This document shows positions 38,082 through 58,591 of a stretch of DNA of 64,000 nucleotides, one piece after another. Within the stretch, counting starts at the first letter, position 1, and the number at the start of each line of letters is the position of its first letter. The notes beneath the pieces are model-generated. The model had not been told where the DNA came from. It did no database searches and saw only the letters and a list, made by a program, of their open reading frames with translations. Source of the DNA: a virus (taxonomy: Duplodnaviria; Caudoviricetes); IMG/VR virus record IMGVR_UViG_3300035208_004923, positions 224,001 through 288,000 of that record; one strand, written 5' to 3'. The position numbers were made by a program, and so were the translations under genes.

Positions 38082-39545
38082 TTAGATGATAATTTTTGAA
38101 TAGCGTGGGTCGTTAATTGTTCTTAACATTACTCTTTCTGGCGAAAGAATATCTCCACCTAAAACGGATTTCAATATTGCTGGTGAAAATCCTGATATTA
38201 ATGCAGCCCCAGTTTTGTCAAATTTAACTGGGTTATTTTCCATTTTTATAACGTTTACTTTCCAGAATACAATTGTTGGCATTGTATATCCTGCCGCTTC
38301 GTATTTTTGCGAAATCATTTGCCATGCTGATGCGTCAACTCCGCGAATATAACTTCCGTTGAATTCCATATCTGATACAATAAGAATCTTTGTTGGCATT
38401 TCAGATACAGGTACGTTTCCGTTTACTGCAGCATTAAGTATCAATTCAAATGCAGCACTAAGATTTGTATCGTATCCTTTAGGACCTTTGATTTGTCTAA
38501 TTCTTTGCGATAAAGAACCAGTCATTCTCTGCAATGTTGGTTGACTTGTAAATGTAATAAAGTGGTCTTTAAACGCGCCTTCTGTTCTTTCAGCAATATA
38601 CATACTCAACGATATTGCAACATCTCCAGCATATAAGTTATCAGTTATTTTTCCAGAAGAACTTGTCATTGATTCTGAAACGTCAATCATTGATATAATA
38701 TTTTCATTGTTGCCTTCAAGAAAATTTGGTAATGCGTTCCATTGCGCTTGTGCAGCGTTTTCGTTTGTACTTACAGTTTTGATTACGTCGTAAGGATATA
38801 TTGCGCCGGCATTGATTTTTGCTTCACCTTTTTCAACTGCTTTTACGTATGCACTGAATCTTTCTTGGTCATTTTTTCCGAATGACTTCATGTAACGAGA
38901 CATTGCAAGCGAAGGCACTTTTTGATAATCTATAGATGAAAAATCTTTATTGCACATTGCTGTTTCAACAACATTTGTTAATGTTGATAAAAGAACTCTA
39001 TAATCTTTTGGCGAAATACCCATTGCAGTTCTGATTTTGTTTGCAATTAATTTTTTATCTTTAGATATTTTTCCACCAAGACGAGGCATCCATTTTGCGC
39101 ATAACGGTTTCATGTTATTGTCTCCAAGTAAAACTGCGATTATGTAATCAATTGCTGCTCTTTCAGCAGGTGTTGAGAATACCGCAAATAAGTCATCGAA
39201 TCTTCCGTATTCTGGAATAACTGTTAAGTTCTTTAACAATACTTCAACGTTTTTTGTTGCTAAGTGATTTAACAATTTTTTGAATACTTCACGTTCTCCA
39301 GCACCACCTCGAATGTCACGAGACCAGAATAAAATTTTCATTGCAACTAATGGGTTTTCTGCGAATGCACCATCGAACATATCAGATAATTTTTCCATCA
39401 TTACTTTGTTATCTCTGTTTGCTCTCATTGCTCCTATTGCGAAGAAAAGGTCAACACAGTAACTTGATGTTGTTGAGTTTGTTAACATACCGTTTGCAGT
39501 TCTTGCGTCGTTTGTTGTCATAGACTGTAATAAAGCGTTTGCCAT
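38082..39545 (-). CDS. DUF2828 / TROVE-like protein with C-terminal vWA domain
   Basis: RDIRGGAGER, AKWMPR, VPSLAM, DVSESM (MIDAS), SDMEF, SGFSP. Confidence 0.8.
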   Translation of the reverse strand: MANALLQSMTTNDARTANGMLTNSTTSSYCVDLFFAIGAMRANRDNKVMMEKLSDMFDGAFAENPLVAMKILFWSRDIRGGAGEREVFKKLLNHLATKNVEVLLKNLTVIPEYGRFDDLFAVFSTPAERAAIDYIIAVLLGDNNMKPLCAKWMPRLGGKISKDKKLIANKIRTAMGISPKDYRVLLSTLTNVVETAMCNKDFSSIDYQKVPSLAMSRYMKSFGKNDQERFSAYVKAVEKGEAKINAGAIYPYDVIKTVSTNENAAQAQWNALPNFLEGNNENIISMIDVSESMTSSSGKITDNLYAGDVAISLSMYIAERTEGAFKDHFITFTSQPTLQRMTGSLSQRIRQIKGPKGYDTNLSAAFELILNAAVNGNVPVSEMPTKILIVSDMEFNGSYIRGVDASAWQMISQKYEAAGYTMPTIVFWKVNVIKMENNPVKFDKTGAALISGFSPAILKSVLGGDILSPERVMLRTINDPRYSKIII

Positions 39546-39601
39546 AATAATTTGTTTTTATTGTTAATATTTTTATAATATGCTTTTTTCTTACAAAAAA
39601 A

Positions 39602-40035
39602 GCGAGAATACGTTTAAGTCTGCAACAAAGCGGACGAAATTGTATTCTCGCGAATAAATTTACAGGTTGCGCATTGATTGATAGTTAAACGATTACTGGT
39701 AAACCAGTGGGACGTCAAATTAGTTTTCAATAATTGCTGTAGGCAACCTTCCTAATAATGTTGCAGGTTAGTGTTTATAGTTTTTGCTGAACTTTTTGAG
39801 TTGCTGTAACTAACCTTTTATATTTTCAAAATTCTGAACAGATTAACTTTGAGATTTTACTGTCTCGCAGTTTGTGTATTTGCAGAGCACCCTCCGATAA
39901 TCCTTTGTTCCGCAATGTTTCGATAACGAACGGCATTTGCAGCGGTTAATGTATGAAGGCGATTGATTTTCCTTCGAGATTAGACTAATGCTTCTAGTTT
40001 AAATTAGTTGCAGTATTTAATCTTCAATCAGAATT
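39602..40035 (-). ncRNA. Array of putative structured RNAs upstream of DUF2828 gene
   Basis: Three stems (39664-39749, 39765-39816, 39840-40023), each AG[GA]TT..AC[AT]GCAA...stem-CTG on minus strand, plus a fourth hairpin 39602-39651. Confidence 0.55.
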
Positions 40036-40093
40036 TGTATTTGTTTGTTTTGTTTATATATTATACACAAGTATAAAATAGTTTCAAAAATTT

Positions 40094-40585
40094 TTATTTT
40101 TTTATCATATCACTGTTCCAAGCCAGTAACGTTGGAACAACACTTTGAAAATCATCTTCGGAATTTAACTCTTTTTTGTCTTTTAATGACTTGATGAAAT
40201 CTGATAATTTTGATACTATGGTATTAACGCCAATCCCAATATGATTACTATGTCCATCAAAATATACGTAATCGCCATTTATATCATCATACATTAAAAT
40301 AACAGGACGATTTGCCCATAATCTTGCTTGCGTTCTTGACCAAAGTTCTCGGTATTTGTATGGTGTTGACAGATTGCATTTAAAACCCATTTCCTCTACA
40401 TTTAATTGCAATTTGAAATTTTTTGTTGGCACGCCATAAATAATAGTAGGATTTTTAACGTAATTCGAAGCAAGAAATACTAAATTTTTAAGTGTTACTT
40501 CCGCATACGTTACTTCATAAATACTTTCGTTTATTATTTGACTTTCATTGATGAATTCGTCAAGTGTTGGTATTCTTCTTTCCAT
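40094..40585 (-). CDS. Leader-bearing putative internal head protein
   Basis: MERRIPTLDEFINESQIINES. Confidence 0.7.
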   Translation of the reverse strand: MERRIPTLDEFINESQIINESIYEVTYAEVTLKNLVFLASNYVKNPTIIYGVPTKNFKLQLNVEEMGFKCNLSTPYKYRELWSRTQARLWANRPVILMYDDINGDYVYFDGHSNHIGIGVNTIVSKLSDFIKSLKDKKELNSEDDFQSVVPTLLAWNSDMIKK

Positions 40586-41655
40586 TATACTAATTAATTT
40601 TTAAAATGACTTTGTGCTTCTTTATCCGTGTAAAATTTCTTTTCAACAATATCATAGTATATGCTATCAGATGTTGAACCTGGAAAATAAAGTGAACAAC
40701 CGTTAGATCCTTGGCCCATATTTGGTGTTCCATGATTGTACGCAAAATGTACTGTTGTCCAAATATATGCAGGGAAAGTAAAAACACCGTTTTCTTCTTT
40801 TCCCATTGGCATTTTTCTACCAGAGAAATTATCAATTGTTACAGAATTCATGCCATATTGAAATATGCCGTATTCATGTCTGTTAATAGGTTTTATAGTC
40901 ATATCAATATATCCTCTTGAATTTTTAACATCAGATATATTAAGTTGTATTCCTATTTTTTTGTTAACCAAATCAGAAAATGCTTGGCCCCAATTTTTTA
41001 ATATAGATGCTTCCAATTCAGATTGTGAAGTTATCGTAGAGTCAGATACCATTTGTTCTGATTCGTTTAAAAATTGTGAAGATTCATTGATGAATTCGTC
41101 AAGTGTTGGTATTCTTCTTTCCATTATACTAATTAATTTTTAAAATGACTTTGTGCTTCTTTATCCGTGTAAAATTTCTTTTCAACAATATCATAGTATA
41201 TGCTATCAGATGTTGAACCTGGAAAATAAAGTGAACAACCGTTAGATCCTTGGCCCATATTTGGTGTTCCATGATTGTACGCAAAATGTACTGTTGTCCA
41301 AATATATGCAGGGAAAGTAAAAACACCGTTTTCTTCTTTTCCCATTGGCATTTTTCTACCAGAGAAATTATCAATTGTTACAGAATTCATGCCATATTGA
41401 AATATGCCGTATTCATGTCTGTTAATAGGTTTTATAGTCATATCAATATATCCTCTTGAATTTTTAACATCAGATATATTAAGTTGTATTCCTATTTTTT
41501 TGTTAACCAAATCAGAAAATGCTTGGCCCCAATTTTTTAATATAGATGCTTCCAATTCAGATTGTGAAGTTATCGTAGAGTCAGATACCATTTGTTCTGA
41601 TTCGTTTAAAAATTGTGAAGATTCATTGATGAATTCGTCAAGTGTTGGTATTCTT
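40544..41655. repeat. Tandem duplication, 539-bp unit, bounded by three copies of a 34-bp leader-coding sequence
   Basis: ttcattgatgaattcgtcaagtgttggtattctt at 40544, 41083, 41622; the two intervening units read as identical. Confidence 0.95.
40594..41124 (-). CDS. Leader-bearing protein, duplicated copy
   Basis: MERR leader plus body identical to 41133..41663. Confidence 0.75.
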   Translation of the reverse strand: MERRIPTLDEFINESSQFLNESEQMVSDSTITSQSELEASILKNWGQAFSDLVNKKIGIQLNISDVKNSRGYIDMTIKPINRHEYGIFQYGMNSVTIDNFSGRKMPMGKEENGVFTFPAYIWTTVHFAYNHGTPNMGQGSNGCSLYFPGSTSDSIYYDIVEKKFYTDKEAQSHFKN

Positions 41656-41663
41656 TGTTTCAT
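41133..41663 (-). CDS. Leader-bearing putative internal head protein
   Basis: MKQRIPTLDEFINESSQFLNES. Confidence 0.75.
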   Translation of the reverse strand: MKQRIPTLDEFINESSQFLNESEQMVSDSTITSQSELEASILKNWGQAFSDLVNKKIGIQLNISDVKNSRGYIDMTIKPINRHEYGIFQYGMNSVTIDNFSGRKMPMGKEENGVFTFPAYIWTTVHFAYNHGTPNMGQGSNGCSLYFPGSTSDSIYYDIVEKKFYTDKEAQSHFKN

Positions 41664-41694: not shown

Positions 41695-41946
41695 TTAGTC
41701 AAGTGCTTTGCCATCAGGATATTCACCTTTTGCAATTGCGTATTTTACAATGTCAACAGTATCAAATGCAGGATGCGGTGCTATACCGCCATTGTATTTT
41801 TTGTCCCATTCTGCTACTGATGAAGGATTATTAATGTCAAATTCTTTATTTACGTATGCTTTAACAACATACATAGAAAACCACGATTTTGGGGTTCTTA
41901 CGCTCTCGTTAATAAATTGTTCTAATGTAGGTATTCTTTGTTTCAT
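41695..41946 (-). CDS. Leader-bearing putative internal head protein
   Basis: MKQRIPTLEQFINES. Confidence 0.7.
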   Translation of the reverse strand: MKQRIPTLEQFINESVRTPKSWFSMYVVKAYVNKEFDINNPSSVAEWDKKYNGGIAPHPAFDTVDIVKYAIAKGEYPDGKALD

Positions 41947-43344: not shown

Positions 43345-43902
43345 TTAAATGTTGATGAATTCTTTTTCTCCAGTTGTATGACTGTAAGTATACACTTCTG
43401 GATTAAATTGTTTTGGTTCAGTTAATTCTTTTGCGTATTTTTTACCACAACCTGGTTTTAAATATGCAATTGTTATGTGTGGGTGGTAATCAGGAAAATC
43501 TGATGTATATTCAAAGTTTTCACATATTTCTTTGTTAAGCTTAAATAAATTATCGCCTTGTATGTCGTACTTTAATACATCATATTTTGGATTTTCAAAA
43601 ATGCTAATAGCATCCGAACTTAATTCAATTGTTGATAAAGATGGCAGCATACTTTTTAACTTTTCCATGTCTGTATCTGCGTGTAAGCCGTAAAGTACAG
43701 TTACGTGTGGCTCTGTTTCAAATCCGTAATCTTCCTCTTCGGTATACAAATCATTGGCATCAACCAATGTATGAATAAAATTGTCCCATCCGTCGGTATT
43801 TACATTTACCATTAGACAACTATAATCGTATACTTGTTTTGATGCCTCATTAATTTGTTTTTGTTCAACAAATTCGTTTAATGTTATGATTCTTTGTTTC
43901 AT
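43345..43902 (-). CDS. 2H phosphoesterase, Acb1 (T4 57B)-like, with leader
   Basis: PHVTVLYG and DFPDYHPHITIAY (two HxT motifs); leader MKQRIITLNEFVEQKQINEA. Confidence 0.75.
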   Translation of the reverse strand: MKQRIITLNEFVEQKQINEASKQVYDYSCLMVNVNTDGWDNFIHTLVDANDLYTEEEDYGFETEPHVTVLYGLHADTDMEKLKSMLPSLSTIELSSDAISIFENPKYDVLKYDIQGDNLFKLNKEICENFEYTSDFPDYHPHITIAYLKPGCGKKYAKELTEPKQFNPEVYTYSHTTGEKEFINI

Positions 43903-54798: not shown

Positions 54799-56508
54799 TT
54801 ATACTAAACCTCCAGCTGGAGTAGCAACGAAGAATGTGAAATACATTGTTTCTGGGTGGAAACCTGCTTCAACAAGAGCGTAACGAGATTTAACGGCAAC
54901 TTTCGGAGTCATTGTACCTTCAGCAATTGTTTGGATAGTTTCAGCCATCAAGTAAGGCATGTATTTTAATCCTGGTTCTTCATCAGCACCTTTACGTCCT
55001 ACTAATACACGAGTATCAGACCAAGACATGTTAGGGTCAACATATACAGTCATACCTGCAACAGCACCTACTGGGTAAAGTGAACCGTTGTTTTGGTTGA
55101 TTGTATTTGCCATTGGAGCAAATGTGAATTGTGCAGAATCTTGTAAGATTGTAGCGATTTGAAGGTTTGTAACAATGAAGTTAGCAGGACCTCTACGACC
55201 TCTTTGAGAGATTACGTTACCACCAGCAAGAATTCTTGAGAAAACTCTACGTTGAACAGTCCATTGGTTTTCAAATGCTGCAGAAGGATTAGCTCCAGCG
55301 AACAATGACATAACAGGAACAGACATTGTAGTAGTTGCACCGTCTTTATTGTTGAATGTTTGGTAAGTTGTACTAGCACTTGGGTCAGTTTGCAAGTTGA
55401 AGTTTTGACCTTCTACTTCAGCAAATGTATTGTGGTTAGTCCATCCTAAAGCAAACGCTCTTGATAAGATGTGTTTGTTGATTGATTGAGATACTTCGTT
55501 CACTAATGAATTTTCAACCATACCTACAACATCGATACCGAATTGACGGTTAAGATCTTGTATTTGTTCAGTTGTTACAGTAGCAGCAGCTTGGTAAGTT
55601 TCAGCTTCAACGAACTTAGTGAATGTTTGAAGACCCATAGTTCTGTAGTAAGTTTGTTCACCAATACCTCTTCTCATTGGTTCTGGGTTAGAAGCACCAT
55701 TTGCATAGTTTCCAGTCCAAGCATCACCATCTTGAGCACCAGCACCAGTATATCCTTGGATATGATCTTCTAAAGCTTTCACTAAAGAAGCAGTTGCAGT
55801 ACAAGGTGTAGCAGCAGGAGAACCATCAGAATCAATTGTAAATGCAGATCCAGTGTTGAATACATCAGCAACTAATAAATGAGGAGTTGAGATAGAAGCA
55901 GTTTGCCAAGCAGAACCGATTTTATATTTTTCGCCAGATTTAAGAGCACGGAAGATTTTGTATGCATCGATACGAGATTTACCAATATAGATTAACTCTA
56001 AGTTGTTTGATCCTGAAGTTGCAACATATTTAGTACCTACTGTGTAAGAACCACCGATGTTAACTTTAATCATTGTTGGGTTTTCTGCGTTTGCATCAGA
56101 TGGGTCGTTTGGTAATTTACCACCAGCATAAACGTAGTCAAGGTAAGTTAATACTCCTGAAGGACCGTTCATTGGAATTACAGGTACAATATCAAAACCG
56201 ATTGTTCTAGCACCAACTTGGATTGCAAGAGGTAAAAGAGAAGGGAATTTGTCACCTGAACCAGTTGCAGCGCTATGGAAAGCAGCACCACCAGCAACTT
56301 GACCTGTAGCCACGTTACCCATACCTGGAGTGTTTTGTAAAGATGCAGCAGGCCATGCCCATCCGCCTACGAAAGAAGATTCATTCAAAGCGTGGAAGTG
56401 GCAATATTTTGATAACCAAGCAAGTTTACTTTTGTCTGTAATTTGCGTTTTTTCTTCTACGATTGGTGCCCATTCTTCGAAAATTTGTTTTTCGTTTAAA
56501 AGTTTCAT
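54799..56508 (-). CDS. Major capsid protein (T4 gp23-like)
   Basis: VPVIPMNGPSG, EQIQDLNRQFGID, RRGPANFIV, YMPY, VKSRYAL; biased codon usage; start reassigned to ATG 56508. Confidence 0.92.
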   Translation of the reverse strand: MKLLNEKQIFEEWAPIVEEKTQITDKSKLAWLSKYCHFHALNESSFVGGWAWPAASLQNTPGMGNVATGQVAGGAAFHSAATGSGDKFPSLLPLAIQVGARTIGFDIVPVIPMNGPSGVLTYLDYVYAGGKLPNDPSDANAENPTMIKVNIGGSYTVGTKYVATSGSNNLELIYIGKSRIDAYKIFRALKSGEKYKIGSAWQTASISTPHLLVADVFNTGSAFTIDSDGSPAATPCTATASLVKALEDHIQGYTGAGAQDGDAWTGNYANGASNPEPMRRGIGEQTYYRTMGLQTFTKFVEAETYQAAATVTTEQIQDLNRQFGIDVVGMVENSLVNEVSQSINKHILSRAFALGWTNHNTFAEVEGQNFNLQTDPSASTTYQTFNNKDGATTTMSVPVMSLFAGANPSAAFENQWTVQRRVFSRILAGGNVISQRGRRGPANFIVTNLQIATILQDSAQFTFAPMANTINQNNGSLYPVGAVAGMTVYVDPNMSWSDTRVLVGRKGADEEPGLKYMPYLMAETIQTIAEGTMTPKVAVKSRYALVEAGFHPETMYFTFFVATPAGGLV

Positions 56509-56539
56509 TTTATTGAATTTTTTTATTTTAATGTTTGTT

Positions 56540-58591
56540 TTATCTGTTGAATCTATCAAGATTTGCTTTTACGCTTTCCATATAGCTTTTGCTATATCCA
56601 CGTTGTGCAGCTCCAGTTTCTTCAACAATTTGAGCATTTGCTGATTCGTTCAGCGTACCGTTGCCTTCAACTTTATGCAATCCACGAGTTTGCCAGAAAT
56701 TGATTACTTGTCGTTCAGTATTCAATGGGTACAATTTCGATTGTGAAGCAATTTGATTCTTTGCAGATTCAGTTAGAGATTCCCAAGTTGCTTTGTACTC
56801 CTCAGGCATTTTTTCTAACCATAGGTCAGATTTTGGTGCTAGAGATTGAGTTGCTGCTCTTTCAAGTAAAGCAGTCATTTCTTCTTTACTTTTGTGGTTG
56901 TTTTCATTGATAGACGATGCAATCTGTTGTTTTTGAATGTCTGTAAAAGAAATAAATTTCTTAACTTGTTCGCCATCTAAATTCTTTAAGAAAGGATAAT
57001 TTTCAATGTGTTCATTGATTGGATTCATCTTTTGTGTTTGGATAGATTCCAATAAGTTGTCAATTTTGCTTCCTAAAGAAGTATATTTACTTAATATGTT
57101 TTCTTTTTCATTAACAACAGCTTCATTAACAATTGGAGCAGTTGTGTTTGTTTTTACGCTTTCAGAAATTGCTTCAGCAAAACCTGCAACGTTTTCAAGA
57201 TCTTCACGAGTTGCAGCATTTTCACCTAAGTAATCAGCGTATACGTGAACTTCGTTTGTTTTCTCCATGATATAATCTTGGTAGTTCCATAAGTGATTAA
57301 TTTTTTCAGTAATTACTTCTTGGATATAAGATTGTGTTTCATGTAATTCTTTTGCTAAAACTTCTTCAGCATAATTTAAACCGTAATTTGCTTGTTCTGC
57401 AATTTTCTCAGAGTAAGCAATATTTTTTTCAAGTAACGGTCTAATTTTATCGTTTAAATAACCAGCAACATAATTATGATCTTCAGCAATTTTTTCAGTG
57501 TATGCAGCAACATGATTATGATCTTCTGCAATACGTTGTGTATAATCTGCTAACCAGTTATGATCTTCACCAATCAATTCAACATAATTAATTGTATCAG
57601 AAACATATTTAGAAAGTTCATTAGAATATTTCTTGATTGTAACAATTTCACCTTCAAGAACTTTAATTCTTTCATTTGTTTCATCGGTTGTAGATTCTTG
57701 TGGCTTAACAGATAAAGATTCCATTTTCTTAGTCATTTCAGCGATTGCCGATTCAAACTTTTCCATTTGTTCTTTAACATGTAAAGAATACTTGTACATA
57801 TCTTCAGCCGTAACAGTATTATTATTTTTTTCCATGCTTGATGAATTATTTTTATTATATATTGCTTCATTCAATGCATTTTTTTCAACTTGTGCATTTT
57901 GGGTTGAAGCAGGTTTTGTTTTCTTTGTTAAACTAAAATCATATATACTAAAATCAGCACCTTCAATTAATAAATCAGGATACTTATCAGTCACATCGTA
58001 TAAATTAATGCCATCAGCACCATTGAATCCTAATTCTTTATTTAATGAAGGTAATTCAGTTTCCATTACTAATCCTGAACAGATAGATTCGTATACACGT
58101 TCCATTTCAGCATTATCGCCAAATCCGCCATCCGCAACTAAATCATAAGTGAAGATTCTTTTGATTTTAACTTCTTTGTTTTCTTTAACAACACCTGCAG
58201 CTCTAGATGAAATACTAATAGGGAAACCTGAATCAACAAGTTTTCTAGCATTTAAACCAGCAGGGTCAGTATCTAATAATCGAATACGTCCTTTAAGTGT
58301 ACGTGTTTCTTTATCATACCAAATTTTTTCAACAAGATGTGAAATGTTTGCAAGACTTACATCGAATTTTTCAGGATGATCTAATTCACCAGCTAATTTA
58401 TTTCTTTTGATTTTTTCTTGTAAATATTCCAAGTGTGGCATGTATTCGTCTTCTTCGTAAATTCTATGATTTACGTTTTCTTTACCGAATACACAAAAAA
58501 TTCCTTCAAGAATATAATTGTCTTTATCAACAACTTTAAATTCATGACCAGATTTTTCAGTTAATAAAAATACCTTAGCGTTTTTTGACAT
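56540..58591 (-). CDS. Prohead protease (gp21-like) fused to scaffold/core domain
   Basis: NVNHRIY, GELDHP, ISH, ISSRAAG, TYDLVADGGF; coiled-coil tail with AEDHN repeats and many [LIV]NE sites. Confidence 0.88.
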   Translation of the reverse strand: MSKNAKVFLLTEKSGHEFKVVDKDNYILEGIFCVFGKENVNHRIYEEDEYMPHLEYLQEKIKRNKLAGELDHPEKFDVSLANISHLVEKIWYDKETRTLKGRIRLLDTDPAGLNARKLVDSGFPISISSRAAGVVKENKEVKIKRIFTYDLVADGGFGDNAEMERVYESICSGLVMETELPSLNKELGFNGADGINLYDVTDKYPDLLIEGADFSIYDFSLTKKTKPASTQNAQVEKNALNEAIYNKNNSSSMEKNNNTVTAEDMYKYSLHVKEQMEKFESAIAEMTKKMESLSVKPQESTTDETNERIKVLEGEIVTIKKYSNELSKYVSDTINYVELIGEDHNWLADYTQRIAEDHNHVAAYTEKIAEDHNYVAGYLNDKIRPLLEKNIAYSEKIAEQANYGLNYAEEVLAKELHETQSYIQEVITEKINHLWNYQDYIMEKTNEVHVYADYLGENAATREDLENVAGFAEAISESVKTNTTAPIVNEAVVNEKENILSKYTSLGSKIDNLLESIQTQKMNPINEHIENYPFLKNLDGEQVKKFISFTDIQKQQIASSINENNHKSKEEMTALLERAATQSLAPKSDLWLEKMPEEYKATWESLTESAKNQIASQSKLYPLNTERQVINFWQTRGLHKVEGNGTLNESANAQIVEETGAAQRGYSKSYMESVKANLDRFNR

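Follow-up and report, generated by a model that had tools for sequence, protein, structure and literature searches.

The genome of a T4-like megaphage of approximately 421 kb contains a perfect repeat that probably originated when a single presumed head-cargo gene was, very recently, duplicated in tandem through identical 34-base stretches in the leaders of this gene (A) and of its neighbour (B). The evidence comprises the structure of the repeat, a chimeric gene within it, an exceptional identity between the leaders of A and B at the DNA level, and strain variation that is concentrated at the 5′ end of A.

The window, by which we mean the whole stretch of 64,000 nucleotides analysed here, corresponds to positions 224001-288000 of contig C1 (425,361 bp). 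The ends of C1 overlap by 4.6 kb at 99.5% identity, and the genome of this uncultured phage, of approximately 420.8 kb, therefore looks complete. The contig shares its bin with a bacterium of approximately 1 Mb. Within the terminal overlap, at C1:338-635, lie approximately 20 tandem copies of a 15-bp unit (TGTATGGAACATGAT), with a 10-N masked stretch within each copy of the array. A family of dispersed repeats of approximately 300 bp (75-93% identity) occurs at C1:4287-4638, 56835-57144, 292481-292780, 383911-384262 and 395931-396244. ARAGORN predicts 53 tRNA genes at C1:8783-125713, with the anticodons tca and cta (suppressor-like for TGA and TAG), two Arg-UCU and eight CAU among them; the open reading frames studied here read cleanly under table 11. 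Elsewhere in the bin, UvsX-like, gp32-like and weak UvsY-like matches cluster on contig C32:2398-4961 (G000), which suggests that another T4-like phage is present in the bin besides C1.

Structure and gene content of the duplication

Positions 40544-41655 of the window form a perfect tandem duplication, in which two copies of a 539-bp unit are followed by a third copy of a 34-bp leader stretch. A preliminary description of this DNA had pointed to an identical 34-bp sequence coding for RIPTLDEFINE at 40544, 41083 and 41622, spaced 539 bp apart; these positions are exact, and the identity extends further than was stated, to 573 bases. The 34-mer (TTCATTGATGAATTCGTCAAGTGTTGGTATTCTT), whose reverse complement reads in codons (A)AGA ATA CCA ACA CTT GAC GAA TTC ATC AAT GAA, occurs exactly three times when both strands of the window are searched, and the sole further near-match in the whole 1.6-Mb assembly carries 3 mismatches. 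At every base, 40544-41116 equals the sequence 539 bp onward (573 bases compared, 0 mismatches), a periodic run of 539 + 34 bases in which the length of the unit is the spacing of the 34-mer. Unit 1 (40544-41082, minus strand) matches unit 2 (41083-41621, minus strand) base for base, and the periodicity stops at the third leader copy, where MKQ (AAA CAA) stands in place of MER (GAA AGA). Self-BLAST of the 421-kb phage genome returned the duplication as its longest repeat and as its sole perfect repeat longer than approximately 150 bp. A perfect run of 573 bases with period 539 rejects a chance origin. An origin from a diversity-generating or mobile element was likewise rejected, the 539-bp unit containing no reverse transcriptase, nuclease or inverted repeat.

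The genes of the locus all lie on the minus strand, in the order MKQR-A, MERR-A, MERR-B. The first, A1 (41133-41663), encodes 176 aa beginning MKQRIPTLDEFINES (MKQR) and is the parental copy with its own upstream region. The second, A2 (40594-41124), also of 176 aa and beginning MERRIPTLDEFINES (MERR), differs from A1 only at residues 2-3 and is a chimera of the translation start of B and the body of A: the 8 bases upstream and codons 1-3 (MER) are those of B, and the shared leader and the A body follow. Gene B itself (40094-40585; 163 aa, beginning MERRIPTLDEFINES, MERR) is an orphan with a body unrelated to A. The leader repeats occupy codons 4-14 of each gene, as the exact 34-mer encoding RIPTLDEFINE in B (40544-40577), as the recombinant junction in A2 (41083-41116) and as the third copy in A1 (41622-41655). 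Unit 1 contains the 34-bp leader stretch of B, the first codons of B (ATG GAA AG), an 8-nt spacer and the whole A2 body, and unit 2 contains the corresponding leader stretch of A2, the MER start codons, the spacer and the A1 body. Outside the 34-mer, A1 and B diverge immediately: upstream they agree at 24 of 60 bases, and downstream at 9 of 33.

With R as the 34-bp stretch, the locus runs flank, R, U, R, U, R, flank (two units and three copies of R), which implies that two copies of R were already present at a spacing of 539 bp when the event took place; not one substitution has accumulated across the 573 bases, which points to a very recent duplication. We propose that the neighbouring late genes A and B already began with the same capsid-targeting-type leader, its 34 identical bases 539 bp apart, and that misaligned homologous recombination or replication slippage between these 34-mers would have duplicated everything between them, presumably through general recombination that needs no dedicated enzyme. 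The product would be a gene made of the ribosome-binding region and first three codons of B, the common leader and the body of A, and it is intact because the break falls in frame within the shared coding leader. An unequal crossover between the leaders of an ancestral pair had been put forward from the gene order, and the R, U, R, U, R layout together with the A2 chimera that it predicts leaves this reading well supported, slippage being named equally with it. Two orders of events are compatible with this layout: conversion of the leader patch may have preceded the duplication, or A may have been duplicated before its two copies underwent mutual conversion. C1 has a RecA/UvsX-family match and a UvsY-like match slightly under the cut-off, which fits general, T4-style recombination on any available homology.

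Directly upstream of A1 lies a leader-tagged gene of 83 aa (41695-41946, minus strand), preceded by the T4-late-promoter-like sequence GAATATATAAAATAAA. The 8-nt spacers between A1, A2 and B make a single late operon probable, with the 83-aa gene first and A, A and B after it. A scan for sigma-70 promoters and terminators was uninformative, its counts being close to those of shuffled sequence.

The A family has 58 representatives at 50% clustering, which are either stand-alone proteins of approximately 175 aa or the C-terminal domain of longer proteins; nearly all of the stand-alone members carry a leader of the same type, and an alignment of 30 members is highly diverse. The AlphaFold2 model of A is confident (mean pLDDT 91.6) apart from its first 20 residues, which are of low confidence, as would be expected of a propeptide. 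Searches with A gave no Pfam or PHROG match and no convincing structural relative (best Foldseek E-value 0.09; best VIA Z 4.2). For B, no homologue besides itself and no Pfam or PHROG match was found, and its Atlas model is poor (pLDDT 0.38). A is probably a protein carried inside the phage head: it would be packaged there, and a gp21-type protease would cut off the leader after I-N-E. The differences between A1 and A2 are confined to the presumed propeptide, so that the mature proteins would be identical and the only effect of the duplication would be a doubled dose of A.

This extra dose might itself have been selected, in an adaptive accordion in which more A per virion would counter host defence, as in the amplifications of poxvirus K3L or T4 tifA, although we consider such a benefit rather unlikely. 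With both copies giving the same mature protein, dose alone would change; A and its relatives form a leader-tagged family that is widespread in phages, a nearby leader-tagged gene resembles the anti-CBASS enzyme Acb1, and the internal proteins of T4 are anti-restriction factors (PMC12373910). However, A lacks a Pfam, PHROG or convincing structural match, there are two copies only, the MKQR-A and MERR-A pair is absent from the records of other strains, and a neutral, short-lived duplication fits equally well.

The leader-tagged protein of 185 aa encoded at 43345-43902 (minus strand; leader MKQRIITLNEFVEQ) matches the 2′-5′ RNA ligase/2H phosphoesterase superfamily (PF13563, 31.7 bits) and also anti-CBASS Acb1 (PF23474, 27.3 bits), which makes it a candidate for a head-delivered counter-defence enzyme. 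A non-coding spacer of 548 nt (39546-40093, minus strand) separates B from a DUF2828/DUF7788 VWA gene, which corresponds to phrog_850, annotated as 'RNA-binding protein'. The predicted folding of the spacer is more stable than that of shuffled sequence (z = -2.6), and a long hairpin (39651-39602) with a U-run behind it forms its end; the spacer matched no Rfam family at threshold, and it may code for a partner RNA of the neighbouring DUF2828/DUF7788 protein.

Capsid-targeting-type leaders and the identity of the A-B pair

The leader is carried by approximately 45-69 genes; a scan of all contigs found it on 45-49 open reading frames of C1 and on none of the other 77 contigs. Approximately 45 open reading frames start with M-x-x-R-I-P-T/S-L-x-E/D-F/Y-I-N-E, and the bodies behind the leader are mutually unrelated except for two pairs. 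Most leaders have I/V/L-N-E at residues 12-14, that is, a hydrophobic-x-Glu site of the gp21 type. In T4, the capsid-targeting sequence is found on IPI, IPII, IPIII and Alt and is cut by the prohead protease gp21 at L/I-x-E (PMC9026906); judged by its sequence, the leader described here matches this type of tag. Genes for a gp23-type major capsid protein (54799-56559, minus strand; PF07068, 124.7 bits) and for a protein with a T4 gp21-type prohead protease domain (56540-58591, minus strand; PF03420, 45.5 bits) are present in the window. A T4-late-promoter-like TATA(T/A)AA(T/A)A lies at most 45 bases upstream in 10 of 46 leader genes, the 83-aa gene among them, against approximately 0.5 expected.

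A second hydrophobic-N-E motif appears between residues 15 and 30 in 10 of 45 leader proteins, compared with approximately 1.4 expected from the rest of the proteins; sites in the window include 41601-41609, 40526-40534, 47711, 50393 and 53407. These motifs could be further protease sites, or scars of slippage between NE-coding DNA.

The A and B leaders stand apart at the DNA level. Among 44 canonical leaders (946 pairs), the longest identical run in register has a median of 9 bases and a 99th percentile of 20, and the A-B pair has the maximum, 34. It is also the sole one of the 26 neighbouring leader pairs to exceed 18 bases, all others sharing 4-18. The peptide RIPTLDEFINE is coded by four genes, only A and B using the same codons; at the codon frequencies of each position, all 11 codons would agree with a probability of approximately 0.0025. 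An earlier exchange between the leaders of A and B is the probable source of their identity. That the sole adjacent pair with a long identity is the pair that rearranged is as expected for homology-dependent exchange.

Codon 4 is AGA in 40 of 43 leaders (expected share 0.43-0.49; p = 6e-12) and codon 5 is ATA in 36 of 42 (expected 0.34-0.39; p = 8e-10), the expectations being taken from body and N-terminal codon usage, and through this fixation nearly all leaders have 8-10 core bases in common. At the remaining nine leader codons, variation at silent sites is equal to or greater than that of the whole genome, so that over-conservation of synonymous sites, which had been named as a check, is confined to codons 4-5. 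Translation may account for the AGA ATA bias, as the phage carries two tRNA-Arg(UCU) genes; microhomology is another candidate. Five pairs of unrelated, distant leader genes have runs of 26-34 bases in which identity stops exactly at the leader borders (21-28 of the 60 bases upstream are identical in pairs sharing long leader runs). Runs of at least 26 bases are more frequent than in permutations that exchange codons only between leaders with the same amino acid at the same position (P = 0.004).

Could the leader then be a device in its own right? The start and leader together might form a selected, portable, in-frame adaptor, in which leader DNA, or the ribosome-binding region with it, is kept as a recombination site through which cargo genes of the whole arsenal could be amplified, deleted and swapped, in the manner of integrons or of the promoter-stem-loop cassettes of RB49-type phages, with the core A AGA ATA CC and the second NE motif as common microhomologies; we regard this as improbable. 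The near-invariant codons 4-5 with their core of approximately 8-10 bases, the excess of long identical runs between unrelated, distant genes (five pairs of at least 26 bases) and the repeated exchange in the leader region at the A locus speak for it. They are set against the free variation at the other nine codons, the median shared run of 9 bases (4-18 between neighbours other than A and B), the 9 of 10 other leader genes that exist in a single version among strains, and the AGA ATA bias, which translation could explain equally well. The duplications among the approximately 45 leader genes of the 421-kb genome number one recent and one old. No tyrosine-recombinase (PF00589) match was found on C1, all five matches lying on other contigs of the bin, and as single-stranded DNA the leader region forms no hairpin (approximately -1 kcal/mol, z 0.1 to 0.8 against shuffled sequence). 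Membership of the integrons was rejected, C1 having neither an IntI tyrosine-recombinase match nor attC-like structured sites.

The earlier proposal of accordion-like or integron-like behaviour without an integrase is supported in its specific part, with protein versions that show changes confined to the leader region at the A locus. The case for the tag as a general, integron-like recombination site is weak: most leader pairs share only 4-18 bases, 9 of 10 other leader genes have a single version among strains, the leader genes show one recent and one old duplication, and C1 has no tyrosine-recombinase match. Were the adaptor real, any two of the 45-69 cargo genes could recombine in register to give intact, packageable proteins, a coding-sequence counterpart of integron or PeSL cassettes that would allow quick rearrangement of the injected arsenal.

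An older pair of paralogues, adjacent leader-tagged genes at C1:181648-182576, shares the unusual leader variant ILSIDE. The 86-aa gene of this pair consists of a leader and a copy of the C-terminal domain of the upstream 216-aa gene (86% amino acid identity over 63 residues).

Versions of A among near-identical strains

Protein records from at least five near-identical contigs allowed strains to be compared at the protein level. Of the 19 other proteins looked up, 16 are invariant across the 4-5 contigs on which they occur; B and six neighbouring proteins are each invariant across five contigs. Ten other leader-tagged proteins of the window were compared in this way: nine are invariant across 4-5 contigs, and one has a second version with a single substitution in the body. 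PhoH has two versions among the strains. The DUF7788 protein occurs with a divergent C terminus on a 138-kb contig, with a shorter start call, and in a form cut by a contig end. In the divergent version (P0016), compared with window positions 38082-39545, residues 1-443 are identical and the last 44 have diverged, a boundary that is another sharp mosaic border among the strains as judged from the protein sequences.

A, by comparison, has five versions in its 90% cluster, which differ almost only in the first 22 residues: the alignment has 9 variable columns there versus 1 in the other 155 (Fisher 1e-8). The versions P0003 and P0004 (MKQR-A and MERR-A) are each found on one contig, and only the present assembly carries the pair. 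P0005, on the 138-kb contig (138,444 bp), places MKQRIPTIEEFAVNES on an identical A body, and P0001, on a 379-kb contig (379,087 bp), places MKQRIPTIEEFAVNES on an A body with one residue changed, IPTIEEFAVNES being the leader of these two relatives' versions. The fifth, P0006, comes from a 17.8-kb contig (17,796 bp) and joins the head of B, MERRIPTLDEFINESQIINES (MERR...SQIINES, B's own), to A from EQMV onward. The switch from B head to A body appears to lie at the 8-nt TAAACGAA at the second NE motif, a microhomology found on the minus strand at 41601-41608 in A1, 41062-41069 in A2 and 40526-40533 in B. This contig spans the locus, as its downstream copy of the DUF7788 protein (P0015) is the one cut at the contig end, and its junction is unobtainable from the sequence of the present assembly, which makes it an independent event.

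By these protein records, at least three separate changes have hit the 5′ end of A in otherwise almost identical genomes. Variation almost confined to the first 22 residues and the head swap in P0006 together imply that the 5′ end of A recombines repeatedly, and the character of the A locus as a hot spot is supported at the protein level. The leader-bounded rearrangement in relatives that had been anticipated from the window was found at this level too, in A versions changed in the leader region. The number of contigs per version indicates, indirectly, that the relatives are single-copy for A, and the records suggest that other strains lack the MKQR-A and MERR-A pair.

Wider searches contributed little. 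Megablast against GenBank phages for the DNA of close relatives, searches for related loci with A and B in viral contigs and with A in metagenome and genome contigs, and searches for A in the genus and family of the host bin (61 genomes at first, 401 later) returned nothing usable. P0022, a homologue at 51% identity, led in viral and metagenome contigs only to a weak locus and a 1.4-kb contig. More distant relatives were reached through the capsid protein: forty loci at approximately 55% identity are collinear around the capsid gene, have looser leaders and few cargo genes, and are uninformative on leader-bounded rearrangement.

The two-copy state of A comes from one assembly, and the perfect copies and the presence of the pair in that assembly only would also suit an artefact in which the assembler ran twice round a loop made by the 34-bp repeat of a single A gene; this is improbable, however, because the final k-mers of an assembly are usually longer than 34 bp, tandem repeats are more often collapsed than expanded by assemblers, the contig has a 4.6-kb end overlap and a fully resolved 15-bp × 20 tandem array (which may imply long reads or careful assembly), and an independent contig carries the different B-head/A-body chimera P0006, which no path through this assembly yields and which implies that such chimeras exist in nature. 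A true duplication between the A and B leaders remains the preferred reading.

Relation to known systems and significance

The closest known parallel is the tandem amplification of the anti-defence gene at the T4 dmd-tifA locus, which takes place at microhomologies of 6-10 bp (Srikant, Guegler and Laub 2022, PMC9391042); older T4 rII and gene 16-18 duplications are cited in the same paper. In both cases short direct repeats stand at the two ends of a head-to-tail unit and leave one repeat copy per junction, and in both an accessory, probably anti-defence, gene is affected in a recombination-heavy T4-type phage without a dedicated recombinase. The microhomologies used in T4 are also similar in size to the 8-10-base core shared by the leaders described here (PMC9391042). 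The present homology, in contrast, is 34 bp long and forms part of the codons of an N-terminal leader common to both genes, which keeps the products tagged and in frame; the duplication comes from a natural metagenome assembly rather than laboratory selection, and has two copies only.

Recombinational shuffling has also been proposed for T-even internal-protein loci and PeSL cassettes (Repoila et al. 1994 via Arbiol et al. 2010, PMC2839356). As presented in the latter account, short conserved sequences flanking each cassette were proposed to guide homologous exchange, and the cassettes are likened to integrons, whose mechanisms use integrases. The likeness to A lies in genes for head-packaged, injected proteins at variable loci. 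Exchange in that account takes place in intergenic promoter/stem-loop blocks of approximately 70-100 bp, whereas the junctions here lie within leader codons or at the second NE motif just after them; the crossover falls inside the open reading frame and not in conserved intergenic blocks of that kind.

The leader itself resembles the T4 capsid-targeting sequence: unrelated proteins share it as a short tag at the N terminus, its last residues are I-N-E, the genome has gp21-like and gp23-like genes, and the predicted structure of A has a low-confidence stretch of 20 residues before a well-folded remainder. It differs in length (14 residues as opposed to 10) and in the number of genes that bear it (approximately 45-69 as opposed to 3-4). 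Poxvirus genomic accordions (Elde et al. 2012, as cited in PMC9391042) share with the A locus, as far as they are described there, a short-lived tandem gain in copy number of a host-interaction gene; the A locus differs in showing no sign of selection, of a third copy or of later collapse.

The A locus is a natural case of a known route of accessory-gene amplification in phages and provides no evidence for a new recombination system. What is new relative to T4 amplification and to PeSL cassettes is that the homology lies within a coding leader.

Proteins injected by phages are first-line tools of counter-defence. To our knowledge, how the repertoires of such proteins change is poorly documented outside T4. 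Annotators should be aware that strains may differ in how many copies a leader-bearing array contains, and that assemblies may collapse such arrays. In this megaphage, strains that are otherwise identical differ time and again at the 5′ end of A, and the natural sequence of the locus indicates that a shared targeting tag can guide both the in-frame duplication of cargo genes and the swapping of their heads.
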